Below, in pieces: positions 18,145-64,000 of a stretch of DNA of 64,000 nt (the stretch's first letter is position 1; the number at the start of each line of letters is the position of its first letter). The notes under the pieces were generated by a model. The model did not search any database. It was not told the DNA's origin and saw nothing but the letters and a program-made list of their open reading frames with translations. A program made the translations under genes and the position numbers. The stretch lies in NCBI RefSeq assembly GCF_056712565.1, contig NZ_CM160072.1. One strand, given 5' to 3'.

Positions 18145-18235
18145 GACAACTCCGGCAGGATACTAAAGGCCGCAAGTGTAACGCGAATCATGCGGCGGGC
18201 AAATATCCGAACGACTGGAGCGAAGATAAAACAAA

Positions 18236-18262
18236 GTAAAAAGCCTCGCATTCGACGAGGCT
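18236..18262 (-). terminator. Rho-independent terminator after cspC
   Basis: On minus strand GCCTCGTCGAATGCGAGGC hairpin followed by TTTTT. Confidence 0.65.
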
Positions 18263-18309
18263 TTATAGCGAGATTGAAGCGTATTCACACTTCAGATCAG
18301 TGGATTCGA

Positions 18310-18519
18310 TCAGATAGCTGTTACGTTAACAGCTGCCGGACCTTTCTGACCGTCCTGAATTTCGAACTCAACGTTCTGACCTTCAGCCAGAGTTTTGAAA
18401 CCATTACCCTGGATAGCGGAGAAGTGTACGAACACATCTTTGCTGCCATCAGCCGGAGTAATGAAGCCAAAACCTTTAGACTCGTTGAACCACTTAACCT
18501 GACCTTTAATCTTTGCCAT
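18310..18519 (-). CDS. cspC: Cold-shock-family protein CspC
   Basis: 69-aa [40 protein letters not shown]... (RNP1/RNP2 motifs). Confidence 0.95.
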
Positions 18520-18531
18520 TTGAAAAATTCC

Positions 18532-18675
18532 TTAGATTGTTTTCTTCGCCCGCAGGCATAACATAGATAAAACTGACACATTACTGCATGAGGCACCAAT
18601 ATAAGGCTCGGCAGAGAAGCGGTATTCAACGTCAACGTGTTTACTCAGGACTTCTTTACTGAAAATGCCACACAT
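18532..18675 (-). CDS. yobF: Small protein YobF (47 aa), co-oriented immediately upstream of cspC
   Basis: Hand translation [47 protein letters not shown]; GAGGT Shine-Dalgarno upstream. Confidence 0.8.
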
Positions 18676-19345
18676 AAACAGAACTGTACCTCGTTTAACC
18701 CGAAATCTGTTATCACATACAACGTTAATTATGGCAAGCCATTTTTAAACATGTCTCGATCAGACGCACAAATCTCGATACGTCTTCCACTTTTTTGCAC
18801 ACTTATGCAACGGAATACGCGCCGATATATCATTGTGCTTAACCTTGCCAGTTCAGGCAGATACTTAAACTGGCGTATTTTTTCTAACATAGTTCAATAA
18901 GTTCAGTTGTTCCAGGCCAGTGAGAGAAGTTATTACATAGTGCGTGCAATATCACATTTTTTGCTATGCAATGAATAAAAAGTTATATCACTTTTTCTCA
19001 TAAAACAGTCAGTTAACGGCTATCAATTACCCTAAAGAGAAGTCAATCCCCAAAGGGATTGTAAATTTAAAATAAGAAAAATTGATGAATGAGCAAAAAA
19101 ATCAAGAGAGAAACGTTTCGCTAATAAATAATACCACGCTTAATCACAAATCCGATGTAAACATCCTAATAAATTAATGAGGGAAATATCTTTTTCTGAT
19201 ATCCCGTTACGCAAATTAATAATATGATAATTATTTGAAGTCAGACCAGAGTTTTAATTTGAAGCAGCTGCACCATGACAGTGCGTATAATCAGCATGAA
19301 TTGAGTAACCCTTCAACGACGGGGTTACTCAAGATTGAGGAAGGA

Positions 19346-27342: not shown

Positions 27343-28626
27343 ATGGCTCTTAACACACCACAAATTACGCCGACAAAGAAGATAACAGTGAGGGCTATCG
27401 GCGAGGAACTGCCGCGTGGTGATTACCAACGTTGCCCGCAATGTGACATGCTGTTTAGCCTGCCCGAGATAAATTCTCATCAAAGTGCCTATTGTCCGCG
27501 CTGTCAGGCAAAAATTCGTGACGGGCGCGACTGGTCGCTAACGCGCCTGGCGGCAATGGCCTTCACCATGCTGTTGCTTATGCCGTTTGCCTGGGGCGAA
27601 CCGCTGTTGCATATCTGGCTGTTAGGCATTCGTATTGACGCCAACGTTATGCAAGGCATCTGGCAAATGACCAAACAGGGCGATGCGATAACGGGGGCGA
27701 TGGTCTTTTTCTGCGTTATCGGTGCCCCCCTCATTCTGGTGACCTCCATAGCTTATTTATGGTTTGGTAACCAATTGGGAATGAATTTACGCCCGGTACT
27801 GCTGATGCTTGAGCGGCTGAAAGAGTGGGTGATGCTGGATATCTACCTGGTCGGCATTGGCGTTGCTTCTATAAAGGTACAGGATTATGCCCATATCCAG
27901 GCGGGTGTCGGCTTGTTCTCTTTTGTGGCGTTGGTGATTTTAACGACGGTGACGTTGTCACATCTTAATGTTGAAGAACTGTGGGAGCGATTTTATCCAC
28001 AGCGCCCCGCTACCCGTAGGGACGAGAAACTCCGTGTCTGTCTTGGGTGCCATTTTACCGGCTATCCTGATCAGCGTGGTCGCTGCCCGCGTTGCCATAT
28101 CCCGCTACGCCTGCGTCGCCGTCATAGTCTGCAAAAATGCTGGGCGGCGCTGTTAGCGTCAATCGTTTTGTTGTTACCTGCCAACCTGTTGCCTATCTCT
28201 ATCATTTATCTGAATGGTGGTCGGCAGGAAGATACGATTCTTTCCGGAATTATGTCGCTGGCAAGTAGCAACATTGCAGTTGCGGGAATCGTGTTTATCG
28301 CCAGTATTCTGGTACCGTTTACTAAAGTGATTGTTATGTTCACTTTACTGTTGAGTATTCATTTTAAATGCCAGCAAGGTTTACGCACACGCATTCTGTT
28401 ACTGCGGATGGTGACCTGGATTGGTCGCTGGTCGATGCTCGACCTGTTTGTCATATCTTTAACCATGTCGCTGATTAATCGCGATCAAATCCTCGCTTTT
28501 ACTATGGGGCCGGCTGCGTTTTATTTCGGCGCAGCGGTAATTTTGACTATTCTTGCTGTGGAATGGCTGGACAGCCGCTTACTTTGGGATGCACATGAGT
28601 CAGGAAACGCCCGCTTCGACGACTGA
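27343..28626 (+). CDS. yebS: PqiA-family polytopic inner-membrane protein YebS (LetA)
   Basis: 427-aa ORF with two CxxC...CxxC zinc-ribbon-like cysteine quartets, each followed by a membrane module. Confidence 0.85.
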
Positions 28627-31228
28627 AGCGCAGATTAAAAATAAACGCCGTATCTCACCTTTCTGGCTGCTGCCGTTCATCGCGCTAATGATTGCTGGTT
28701 GGCTGATTTGGGACAGTTATCAGGACCGGGGTAATACCGTCACCATCGACTTTATGTCGGCGGATGGTATTGTTCCAGGCCGTACGCCTGTTCGTTATCA
28801 GGGCGTTGAAGTTGGAACAGTGCAGGATATCAGCCTCAGCGACGATCTTCGTAAGATTGAAGTCAAGGTCAGCATCAAGTCCGATATGAAAGATGCGCTG
28901 CGCGAAGAGACACAGTTCTGGCTGGTGACGCCAAAGGCCTCGTTGGCAGGTGTCTCCGGGCTGGACGCCCTCGTCGGTGGTAATTATATCGGCATGATGC
29001 CGGGTAAAGGTAAAGAGCAGGATCACTTTGTCGCACTCGACACCCAACCGAAATATCGGCTGGACAATGGCGATCTGATGATCCACCTGCAAGCCCCCGA
29101 TCTCGGTTCACTGAGCAGTGGTTCATTGGTCTATTTCCGCAAGATCCCGGTGGGTAAAGTCTACGACTATGCCATCAATCCCAACAAGCAAGGCGTGGTG
29201 ATTGATGTCCTGATCGAGCGGCGTTTTACCGATCTGGTGAAAAAAGGTAGCCGTTTCTGGAACGTTTCCGGCGTTGATGCCAACGTCAGTATCAGTGGCG
29301 CGAAGGTGAAACTGGAAAGTCTGGCGGCACTGGTTAACGGTGCGATTGCCTTCGATTCACCTGAAGAGTCGAAACCTGCCGAAGCGGAAGATACCTTTGG
29401 TCTGTATGAAGACCTGGCCCATAGCCAACGTGGCGTAATAATAAAACTGGAACTGCCAGGCGGTGCCGGATTAACCGCCGACTCGACGCCGTTAATGTAT
29501 CAGGGGCTGGAAGTCGGACAGCTGACTAAACTGGATTTAAATCCTGGTGGTAAAGTCACTGGGGAAATGACCGTTGATCCCAGCGTCGTCACCCTGCTTC
29601 GTAAAAATACCCGCATCGAATTACGTAATCCGAAATTATCCCTTAGCGATGCTAATCTCAGTGCCCTGCTGACCGGCAAAACCTTCGAACTGGTGCCCGG
29701 CGATGGCGAGCCACGTAAAGAGTTCGTGGTTGTGCCAGGCGAAAAAGCCCTGCTGCAAGAGCCGGATGTTCTGACACTGACCCTGACAGCACCAGAAAGT
29801 TACGGTATTGATGCTGGTCAGCCGCTCATTCTTCACGGCGTGCAGGTAGGCCAGGTTATCGATCGTAAACTCACCAGCAAAGGCGTCACCTTTACCGTCG
29901 CCATCGAGCCTCAGCATCGCGAACTGGTAAAAGGCGATAGCAAATTTGTCGTCAACAGCCGCGTCGACGTGAAGGTAGGGATGGATGGCGTTGAGTTTCT
30001 CGGTGCCAGCGCCTCAGAATGGATCAATGGCGGAATACGTATTCTGCCGGGCGATAAAGGCGAGATGAAAGCCAGCTATCCACTGTATGCCAATCTGGAA
30101 AAAGCGCTGGAGAACAGCCTTAGCGATTTACCCACCACAACCGTGAGTTTGAGTGCAGAGACGCTGCCGGATGTGCAGGCAGGATCGGTAGTGCTGTACC
30201 GTAAATTTGAAGTTGGTGAAGTTATTACTGTGCGTCCGCGAGCTAACGCGTTTGATATCGATCTGCATATTAAGCCGGAGTATCGCAACCTTCTGACCAG
30301 CAACAGCGTGTTCTGGGCAGAAGGTGGGGCGAAAGTTCAGCTGAATGGTAGTGGTCTGACTGTACAGGCATCCCCGCTCTCCAGAGCATTAAAGGGGGCT
30401 ATTAGCTTCGATAACCTCAGCGGTGCCAGCGCCAGTCAGCGTAAAGGCGACAAGCGTATTCTGTATGCTTCCGAAACAGCGGCCCGTGCGGTTGGCGGAC
30501 AAATTACGCTTCACGCTTTCGATGCGGGAAAACTGGCGGTCGGGATGCCAATTCGCTATCTCGGTATTGATATCGGGCAAATCCAGACGCTGGATCTGAT
30601 TACCGCACGCAATGAAGTACAGGCAAAGGCGGTGCTCTATCCGGAATATGTCCAGACCTTTGCTCGCGGTGGTACGCGCTTCTCAGTGGTCACACCGCAA
30701 ATTTCGGCAGCTGGCGTTGAGCATCTTGATACTATCCTCCAGCCGTATATCAACGTCGAACCAGGCCGGGGCAATCCTCGCCGCGACTTTGAATTACAAG
30801 AGGCCACCATTACTGATTCGCGTTACCTGGATGGCTTAAGCATTATTGTTGAAGCGCCGGAAGCCGGTTCGTTAGGTATCGGTACACCTGTGCTGTTCCG
30901 TGGTCTGGAAGTAGGTACGGTTACCGGAATGACGCTGGGGACATTGTCAGATCGCGTGATGATTGCGATGCGCATCAGTAAACGCTATCAACACCTGGTG
31001 CGTAACAATTCCGTCTTCTGGTTGGCATCGGGTTACAGTCTGGACTTTGGTCTGACGGGCGGCGTAGTGAAAACCGGCACCTTTAACCAGTTTATCCGTG
31101 GCGGCATCGCCTTCGCCACGCCTCCGGGTACGCCACTGGCACCGAAAGCCCAGGAAGGCAAGCACTTCCTGTTGCAGGAAAGTGAACCGAAAGAGTGGCG
31201 TGAATGGGGAACTGCGCTTCCCAAATAA
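28595..31228 (+). CDS. yebT: Multi-MCE-domain periplasm-spanning lipid transport protein YebT (LetB)
   Basis: ORF-track frame 28553..31228; recognised start [28 protein letters not shown] (28595); repeated MCE-like modules. Confidence 0.85.
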
Positions 31229-34057: not shown

Positions 34058-34188
34058 TATTTTCCTCCCGCGCTAAAGATCACATAATCTTAACAAGAAT
34101 GTTAAAAAACGCTGGACTCAGACAGTAGAGTGTGTGTTATGGTTGACTATAAAGTCAGCGAAGGGAATGCTTCTGGCTTTTAACAGAT

Positions 34189-34291
34189 AAAAAGAGACCG
34201 AACACGATTCCTGTATTCGGTCCAGGGAAATGGCTCTTGGGAGAGAGCCGTGCGCTAAAAGTTGGCATTAATGCAGGCTTAGTTGCCTTGC
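34189..34291 (-). ncRNA. sdsR: SdsR (RyeB) sigma-S-dependent Hfq-binding sRNA
   Basis: Minus strand reads GCAAGGCAACUAAGCCUGCAUUAAUGCCAACUUUUAGCGCACGGCUCUCUCCCAAGAGCCAUUUCCCUGGACCGAAUACAGGAAUCGUGUUCGGUCUCUUUUU; sigma-S-like -10 (TCTATTCTT) just upstream. Confidence 0.8.
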
Positions 34292-34377
34292 TCTTTAAGA
34301 ATAGATGACGACGCCAGGTTTTCCAGTTTGCGTGCAAAATGGTCAATAAAAAGCGTGGTGGTCATCAGCTTAAATGT

Positions 34378-61860: not shown

Positions 61861-62427
61861 ATGCTTGAACTTAATGCTAAAACCACCGCGCTGGTGGTGA
61901 TTGATTTACAAGAAGGCATCTTACCTTTTGCCGGAGGTCCACATACTGCCGATGAGGTGGTTAATCGCGCCGGGAAGCTGGCGGCGAAATTTCGCGCCAG
62001 CGGTCAGCCCGTGTTTCTGGTGCGCGTTGGCTGGTCTGCCGATTACGCCGAAGCATTAAAACAGCCGGTTGATGCCCCCTCCCCCGCAAAAGTGTTGCCC
62101 GAAAACTGGTGGCAACATCCTGCTGCATTAGGTGCAACCGACAGCGATATCGAAATCATCAAACGTCAATGGGGTGCGTTTTACGGTACGGATCTGGAGT
62201 TGCAATTACGCCGCCGGGGTATCGATACAATAGTGTTATGTGGGATCTCGACCAATATCGGTGTTGAATCCACCGCCCGCAATGCCTGGGAACTCGGTTT
62301 TAATCTGGTGATTGCCGAAGATGCCTGTAGCGCCGCTAGCGCCGAGCAGCACAATAACAGCATTAATCATATCTACCCGCGCATCGCCCGTGTGCGCAGT
62401 GTGGAAGAGATCCTCCACGCGTTATGA
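61861..62427 (+). CDS. yecD: Isochorismatase-family hydrolase YecD
   Basis: ORF-track frame 61846..62427; recognised start [20 protein letters not shown] (61861). Confidence 0.8.
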
Positions 62428-63242
62428 TTTACATCGGTTTGCCGCAATGGTCGCATCCTAAATGGGTGCGGTTGGGGATCACCAACCTTGAAGAGTATGC
62501 CCGCAACTTTAACTGCGTGGAGGGTAACACCACGCTTTATGCCCTGCCGAAACCCGAGGTTGTCCTGCGCTGGCGTGAGCAGACCACAGATGACTTCCGC
62601 TTCTGTTTTAAGTTTCCGGCGACCATTTCGCATCAGGCAGCATTACGGCATTGCGATGATTTAGTGACTGAATTTTTGACCCGCATGTCACCGTTGGCTC
62701 CGCGCATTGGACAATACTGGCTGCAACTGCCTGCCACATTCGGCCCACGAGAGCTGCCTGCGCTTTGGCATTTTCTCGATTCTCTTCCCGGTGAATTTAA
62801 TTATGGGGTGGAAGTCCGCCATCCACAGTTTTTCGCCAAAGGGGAAGAGGAACAAACGCTTAATCGCGGTTTACATCAGCGCGGCGTTAATCGGGTGATT
62901 TTAGACAGCCGCCCGGTTCATGCAGCACGTCCACACAGTGAAGCTATTCGCGACGCTCAACGAAAAAAACCTAAAGTTCCGGTACATGCTGTACTGACGG
63001 CGAAAAATCCACTGATCCGTTTTATCGGTAGTGATGATATGACGCAAAACCGGGAGTTATTTCAGGTCTGGTTACAAAAATTAGCACAGTGGCATCAGAC
63101 CACTACGCCTTATCTTTTTTTACATACGCCAGATATTGCCCAGGCCCCGGAACTGGTACATACCCTGTGGGAAGACTTACGTAAAACGCTTCCAGAGATC
63201 GGAGCAGTTCCGGCTATTCCACAGCAATCTTCTCTTTTCTGA
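62424..63242 (+). CDS. yecE: DUF72-family protein YecE
   Basis: 272-aa [32 protein letters not shown]...; overlaps yecD stop by 4 nt. Confidence 0.75.
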
Positions 63243-63294
63243 ATTTGCCACCTATCATAGACAGGTGCCATCGGCCATTTTAAAGGGAGTTTGT

Positions 63295-64000
<706 letters not shown>

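Follow-up and report, generated by a model that had tools for sequence, protein, structure and literature searches.

The letB (yebT) gene of Escherichia coli begins inside the 3' end of letA (yebS), and we propose that it is probably translated for the most part by de novo initiation, from a start site that is embedded in the letA codons right behind the Trp-Asp (W-D) motif of LetA and preceded by a weak Shine-Dalgarno (SD) sequence, while the length of the overlap between the two genes would be incidental. Taken as a whole this was the best explanation of the data. Ribosomes would initiate directly at the internal site, more efficiently than at the start of letA, and the two proteins would be co-expressed by way of co-transcription and not through an obligatory hand-over of ribosomes from one gene to the other. 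The predominance of this route in the living cell is the part of the proposal that we infer.

The two genes lie in a stretch of 64,000 nt, the whole of the DNA that was analysed (the window). This region of the window is E. coli chromosome; it was 100% identical to several complete genomes and was found in 5424 of the 5426 complete E. coli genomes. The locus holds the letA-letB (yebS-yebT) operon, in which the two genes do overlap. The letA reading frame ends with a TGA at 28624-28626, and the letB reading frame is shifted by +1 relative to letA, with its ATG at 28595 and a product beginning MSQETPAS. The RefSeq annotation of an identical E. coli genome gives the same coordinates for yebS and yebT, and the layout of K-12 MG1655 in RefSeq is the same (letA 1916258-1917541, letB 1917510-1920143). 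LetA matched Pfam PF04403 (PqiA) in two stretches (E=1.1e-81) and LetB matched MlaD in seven. When LetA was compared with chain A of PDB 9n8w all residues were aligned (427/427, E=2e-290), and relative to the K-12 protein of the structure two substitutions were seen, Ala119 for Ser119 (27697-27699) and Gln143 for Arg143 (27769-27771), and no others. LetA has the hallmarks of the LetA/PqiA family, namely two PqiA modules in a single polypeptide and a multi-MCE gene directly downstream on the same strand; this gene order was shared by 80 related loci and by most of the distant ones. The reading frames, the RefSeq annotation and the Pfam and PDB matches bore out the gene names, the 32-nt overlap in a different frame and the yebT start at MSQETP that had been given in the initial annotation.

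The 32 nt were the longest of the seven annotated gene-pair overlaps in the window, the others being 4, 4, 4, 4, 8 and 13 nt. Over the 3886 nt of letAB the window differed from K-12 at 99 nucleotides, and it comes from a non-K-12 E. coli lineage; the letA-letB junction was identical to that of K-12 from -60 to +100. LetA residues 419-427 are without cryo-EM density and LetB residues 1-13 are missing from the model (PMC13017536), and we therefore concluded that the overlap encodes two disordered tails. The 32-bp overlap is explicitly reported in the 2026 Nature paper on LetAB ('LetA defines a structurally distinct transporter family', PMC13017536), which describes the same locus, overlap and zinc ribbons for E. 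coli K-12; nothing of substance differs in the window. Both the overlap and the zinc ribbons are thus already published, and nothing in the original observation is new.

Features of the letA-letB locus (positions in the window) and the letB start in the window and in three distant orthologues, which are denoted by their locus numbers
Feature	Position	Strand	Description
letA (yebS) CDS	27343..28626	+	427 aa; from ORF, Pfam, PDB match and RefSeq annotation
N-terminal zinc-ribbon tetracysteine, C31-P-Q-C34 ... C51-P-R-C54	27433..27504	+	C31-x2-C34-x16-C51-x2-C54
C-terminal zinc-ribbon tetracysteine, C233-L-G-C236 ... C248-P-R-C251	28039..28095	+	C233-x2-C236-x11-C248-x2-C251
Near-invariant block	28543..28632	+	Suppressed synonymous change; about 90 nt (about -52 to +37, counted from the letB ATG)
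UGGGAU, codons of LetA Trp415-Asp416	28585..28590	+	W-D motif conserved across the family
Alternative in-frame ATG (MHMSQ...)	28589..28591	+	6 nt upstream of the letB ATG; lost in 19/78 loci
Out-of-frame overlap	28595..28626	+	32 nt; encodes LetA residues 418-427 and LetB residues 1-11
letB (yebT) CDS	28595..31228	+	877 aa; seven-MCE-domain tunnel protein; from ORF frame, Pfam, RefSeq and INRI-seq peak
letB start, window (E. coli)			Start sequence TGGGATGCACATG; overlap 32 nt
letB start, L083			LetA identity 50%; start sequence TGGGATAGCTATG; overlap 56 nt
letB start, L085			LetA identity 44%; start sequence TGGAAAATTTATG; overlap 38 nt
letB start, L091			LetA identity 36%; start sequence TGGGATCATTATG; overlap 11 nt

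The position of the letB start was examined in close and in distant relatives. We retrieved 80 Enterobacteriaceae loci with a LetA identity of 77-97%, which gave 79 readable junctions (78 loci and the window), and the ATG at 28595 was kept in 79 of 79. The start of the letB reading frame is therefore not that of a chance ORF. Distant orthologues were found through a 50%-cluster protein search combined with contig look-ups. In E. coli the first base of the Trp codon in the conserved LetA motif D-x-R-L-(L/I/M)-W-D is followed 10 nt later by the letB ATG, and the same position of the ATG was kept in L083, L085 and L091, three orthologues down to 36% identity. The pattern TGGGAYnnnnATG was also present in L083 and L091, and in L085, where the sequence is TGGAAAATTTATG, the offset of the ATG was unchanged.

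The stop codon of letA was not fixed in this way. In four species, three of Citrobacter and one of Superficieibacter (L013, L030, L032 and L063), the TGA equivalent to window position 28624 has changed to GGA, and LetA, extended by four residues (...GSAD or GSAN), is 431 aa long with 44 nt of its gene shared with letB. These species are a natural experiment, in which the position of the stop is free and the letB ATG is not. Together with the loci of the table, overlaps of 11, 32, 38, 44 or 56 nt were seen with the ATG fixed. In other family members the start lies further downstream, leaving 8-nt overlaps in L086 and L093 and none in L087, and in L094 the choice of ATG makes the overlap either 53 or 20 nt. 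The W-D motif was kept in most of 113 LetA family representatives, and the tail beyond it varied from 3 to more than 60 residues. Since the start is anchored to the W-D codons and the LetA frame runs on to the first stop, we read the overlap length as incidental. The start of letB would be embedded in the letA codons right after R-L-L-W-D, the last conserved motif of LetA; from there the LetA frame would continue through a short disordered tail until the first stop is reached, and 32 nt would be where that stop happens to fall. This geometry of a fixed start and a floating stop may be a new, minor point.

Published in-vitro data show initiation at this site. INRI-seq is the cell-free translation of synthetic RNAs that span -30 to +153 of every E. 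coli gene, with the ribosomes arrested by retapamulin (PMC9825163). Initiation at the annotated letB start was recorded in five out of five replicates at 30-69 CPM, and at letA with 6-8 CPM, while in the RNA pool the letB template was about 9-fold rarer than that of letA, 59 vs 541 CPM (PMC9825163). A check of the letB fragment for start codons in the letA frame gave none ahead of the letB ATG, and therefore initiation of letB on this fragment needs no translation of letA. By these published in-vitro data, from truncated RNAs with just 30 nt upstream and from peak heights that are uncalibrated as rates, the letB site far exceeded the letA site in strength.

The only SD-like sequence that we assigned to letB is GGGA (28586-28589) within the UGGGAU of the W-D codons. 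It lies 5 nt before the letB ATG and forms a duplex with the anti-SD of -4.0 kcal/mol, vs -1.5 kcal/mol for letA's own SD site. Of all positions in letAB 25% matched or bettered the energy of the letB site, and GGGA would act as a weak SD-like element. The initiation region of letA would be very weak, and a stronger initiation at letB would fit the LetAB complex, which contains 6 LetB per 1 LetA. In vitro the letB site exceeds the letA site in strength, as this 6:1 stoichiometry would require, and this may be another new, minor point. Two observations are less easily reconciled with de novo initiation. The letB SD is weak, and weak SD sites often depend on upstream translation. Moreover, the conserved block around the start (-52 to +37, described below) reaches further than that of a control junction and may hold more than an initiation region.

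In the initial annotation the overlap was taken to imply translational coupling of the two genes. As stated, this claim was unsupported, considering the self-initiation of letB in INRI-seq, the 6:1 ratio, the distance range of coupled pairs and a working refactored operon. The form of coupling that corresponds to this reading is termination-reinitiation, in which ribosomes finishing letA at 28626 would move back by about 30 nt and restart at the letB ATG, making LetB dependent on the translation of LetA; we regard it as unlikely. The genes overlap, share an operon and encode subunits of one complex, and such pairs are enriched for coupling (PMC10666635). The weakness of the letB SD would also suit reinitiation, and there is a precedent in the same source, where back-scanning reinitiation is cited (Adhin and van Duin 1990, cited in PMC10666635) for the coat-lysis pair of the MS2-type phage fr, whose overlap of 34 nt is similar in length, out of frame and has the start upstream of the stop. 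However, Huber et al. 2023 assigned efficient termination-reinitiation in native E. coli gene pairs to distances of -8 to +10 nt, a range they use as a predictor, and reported overlaps of more than 8 nt to be rare, and the letA stop, 32 nt downstream of the letB start, is outside this range (PMC10666635). Placing the stop 38 nt upstream of the start nearly eliminated reinitiation in that study, though all of the stop shifts were made upstream of the start, which is the opposite geometry from that of the letA stop (PMC10666635).

Further points against reinitiation come from the stoichiometry, the in-vitro data and the orthologues. A 1:1 hand-over of ribosomes cannot yield 6 LetB per LetA, and the letB site initiates in vitro without any translation of letA. 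The downstream start of phage fr behaves differently, as its lysis start is essentially silent without upstream termination, unlike the letB start, which by the published INRI-seq data initiates alone. Among orthologues the overlap varied from 11 to 56 nt with the start fixed, which argues that the stop-to-start distance is not the conserved feature. An operon without the overlap also works, at least on a plasmid: letA and letB refactored as plasmid-borne, non-overlapping ORFs are the wild-type backbone of a cell-based mutational scan (PMC13017536). In our literature search we found no experiment on the output of LetB with letA translation blocked. We concluded that coupling is probably not obligatory, as the available evidence leans against it. 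Ribosomes translating letA might still facilitate the initiation of letB in a non-obligatory manner.

The comparison with other gene pairs pointed to similarities in arrangement and differences in geometry. Canonical -4/-1 nt pairs (ATGA, TAATG) are likewise same-strand neighbours in an operon that encode one complex, and in them too the second gene's initiation region lies within the first gene, but the letA-letB overlap of 32 nt lies outside the -8 to +10 nt range (PMC10666635) and the subunits stand at 6:1 and not at 1:1. The paralogous pqiA-pqiB of E. coli has the same order, a gene with a double PqiA module followed by a multi-MCE gene, and PqiA shares with LetA a C-terminal D-P-R-L-x-W-D motif and a short tail. 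Unlike letA and letB, these genes do not overlap, pqiB starting 4 nt past the pqiA stop, and a strong GAGGAG Shine-Dalgarno for pqiB lies within the final codons of pqiA, whereas the SD of letB is weak. The next pair, pqiB-pqiC, has a canonical 4-nt overlap.

A block of nearly invariant nucleotides surrounds the letB start. Synonymous codon entropy was scanned in 76 distinct Enterobacteriaceae sequences, using 15-codon windows across about 1300 codons. The mean entropy was 1.19 bits for letA and 1.21 bits for letB. Within the block values of 0.08-0.3 were reached in letA codons 401-427 and a value of 0.24 in letB codons 1-15; the lowest 15-codon windows of the scan were all inside the block, the 5th percentile being 0.86. 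The block begins about 50 nt upstream of the ATG, therefore dual coding alone is insufficient to account for it. As a control we followed the proQ-prc junction of the same loci, where the final 10 proQ codons had an entropy of 0.43 and the 10 before them one of 0.94, a dip that was similar but weaker and shorter than that at letA-letB. Because the control junction dips too, part of the signal is the ordinary footprint of an initiation region inside an upstream gene. We interpret the block as the putative translation-initiation region of letB together with the dual-coding stretch. Inside the block the 17-mer GAATGGCTGGACAGCCG (28561-28577; LetA codons E-W-L-D-S-R), which contains a small palindrome GGCTGGACAGCC, was identical, including the synonymous sites, at positions 4684-4700 of L083, with a LetA identity of 50%; L085 (44%) is without the 17-mer. 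The frozen block of about 90 nt may be a new, minor point as well. That it would be a dedicated cis-regulatory RNA element, which sets or regulates the LetB:LetA synthesis ratio of at least 6:1, for instance by means of an enhancer, a standby site or a trans-acting factor, we regard as distinctly unlikely.

The same block could reflect RNA structure, and coupling could then come about by unmasking: the letB site would be sequestered by pairing with the letA coding sequence, melted by ribosomes translating letA and occupied by fresh 30S subunits. About 90 nt of frozen synonymous sites around the letB start would be in line with this, and RNAalifold, run on 66 sequences, drew small hairpins on either side of the start together with a weak ACUU/GAGU pairing around the SD-AUG. 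We consider this very unlikely. The minimum free energy fold of 28530-28650 (121 nt) was no more stable than shuffled sequence (z = +0.51), and the predicted accessibility of the letB site was unremarkable, at the 76th percentile of the transcript. RNAalifold detected 0 compensatory pairs, in a region too invariant for covariation to inform either way, and the naked fragment supported initiation in vitro in INRI-seq.

For the part of the block upstream of the overlap it seems highly improbable that it forms a separate regulatory element beyond the initiation region, be it a place where a small RNA or a protein binds, or an internal letB promoter. The constraint was longer and stronger than at proQ-prc, and the 17-nt GAATGGCTGGACAGCCG was identical in an orthologue with 50% protein identity, which would speak for such an element. 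Against it, much of the block is covered either by the dual-coding stretch or by the span that an initiating ribosome is assumed to touch on the mRNA, about -35 to +19. Neither did the Rfam search give any family near the letA-letB junction, nor did the literature search give a link between yebT and a small RNA. The nearest sigma-70-like match on the + strand ends at 28205, about 390 nt before the letB ATG, with none detected closer, and an internal sigma-70 promoter for letB was rejected. A terminator-like hairpin at 28513-28535 (+), with an 8-bp stem followed by GGTAATTTTG, inside letA and just upstream of the block, was set aside as a chance match, its pairs being broken in many Enterobacteriaceae.

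Other regulatory features were noticed in the window during these searches. A genomic-SELEX peak of the sigma-28 (RpoF) holoenzyme has been reported inside yebS (type D, intensity 14.4; PMC5493296), and by rough coordinate conversion it lies at about 27600-27900, a few hundred nt into letA and away from the junction. On both strands of 34185-34329, between pphA and yebY, Rfam identified two overlapping antisense small RNAs, SraC/RyeA (+, 176 bits) and SdsR/RyeB (-, 114 bits). The Rfam cspA-thermoregulator (136 bits) was found at 18235-18695 (-), across yobF and a downstream gene of the cold-shock family, which is called cspE in RefSeq here and cspC in the K-12-based INRI-seq table.

Long annotated overlaps are often start-codon errors, and two further in-frame candidates lie upstream, the ATG at 28589 and a TTG at 28553, but it is hardly credible that the letB start is misannotated and the overlap absent or of another length, as both candidates were ruled out on conservation (the ATG is gone in 19 loci and the TTG in three), the letB frame of L083 opens just 4 codons before the ATG, that of L085 has no preceding start codon at all, and the peak seen in INRI-seq is 12-18 nt away from the ATG of the annotation. 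The ATG at 28589 also has a poorer SD (-3.0 kcal/mol, spacing 14), and a search of INRI-seq Table S3 for alternative sites returned no entry for b1833 or b1834. We concluded that this ATG is probably not in use. Initiation of yebT beyond the yebS stop, which by the initial annotation would speak against its reading, was discarded, since a scan of the junctions for start codons detected no ATG, GTG or TTG from the letA stop to LetB Met32, and Met32 itself sits within the transmembrane helix built as residues 25-45 in the cryo-EM model (PMC13017536). In the in-vivo start mapping the Ribo-RET values for letA and letB were 0, a silence at both genes that is probably due to low expression, and LetB is without an entry in the N-terminomics supplement (PMC13245402).

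LetA is the inner-membrane component of the system, with two PqiA/LetA modules, each composed of a zinc ribbon and then a transmembrane domain. The initial annotation had noticed two cysteine quartets and had read them as zinc ribbons, one before each membrane module. The quartets exist, although their positions had been set 2-3 residues too high (33-55 and 235-254); the true ones are C31-C54 and C233-C251. Both quartets were invariant among close homologues. All four N-terminal cysteines were present in 108 and all four C-terminal ones in 110 of the 113 family representatives (<=50% identity), among which the three remaining cysteines of LetA were unconserved. Each quartet consists of two CXXC pairs, 16 (N-terminal) or 11 (C-terminal) residues apart and so within the 11-18 residues expected of a zinc ribbon, and is conserved in the family. 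The reading agrees with published work, where ZnR-N (aa 24-65) and ZnR-C (aa 219-261) each precede a transmembrane domain (PMC13017536; PDB 9n8w/9n8x) and zinc was the one metal enriched in ICP-MS, at about 2 Zn per LetA (PMC13017536). Mutations of the zinc-ribbon cysteines were not tolerated, the function being lost and the protein level lowered, while ZnR-C could be deleted with partial function retained (PMC13017536). The suggestion that the cysteines could be dispensable and bind no metal is contradicted by this zinc content and by the cysteine mutants. Both CxxC-Xn-CxxC quartets are thus zinc ribbons of a structural kind, with one ahead of each transmembrane module.

The structure of LetAB, an important machine for lipid transport in the Gram-negative envelope, was solved recently; beyond good annotation our finding on its operon matters little. 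It has a practical side for genetic work. A chromosomal mutation of the last ~30 codons of letA, or a deletion of letA, also hits the letB start and the conserved initiation region, and the level of LetB may change; the authors of the LetAB structure sidestepped the overlap problem by refactoring the operon. The conserved block and the large difference in initiation in vitro suggest where to look for the way in which 6 LetB per LetA are obtained from one mRNA.

A few of the retrieved sequences were unusual in other respects. The contig CACSKA010000003.1 (L067) has the title 'Chryseobacterium sp. 18061', but its letA-letB is typical of Enterobacteriaceae, with a LetA identity of 79% and an unchanged junction, and this assembly is probably mislabelled or contaminated. 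In Kluyvera ascorbata (L062) and Citrobacter amalonaticus (L007) the junctions were normal as well. Beyond the letA stop, however, the longest open frame of L062 (840 codons) lies in another frame and that of L007 has only 742 codons; letB may carry a frameshift or a premature stop in these two, or the sequences may contain errors. At the right edge of the window (62424-64000) the annotation of the identical genome lists a truncated DUF72-domain pseudogene and then a gene of the recombinase family, which suggests the boundary of an integrated element beside yecD.
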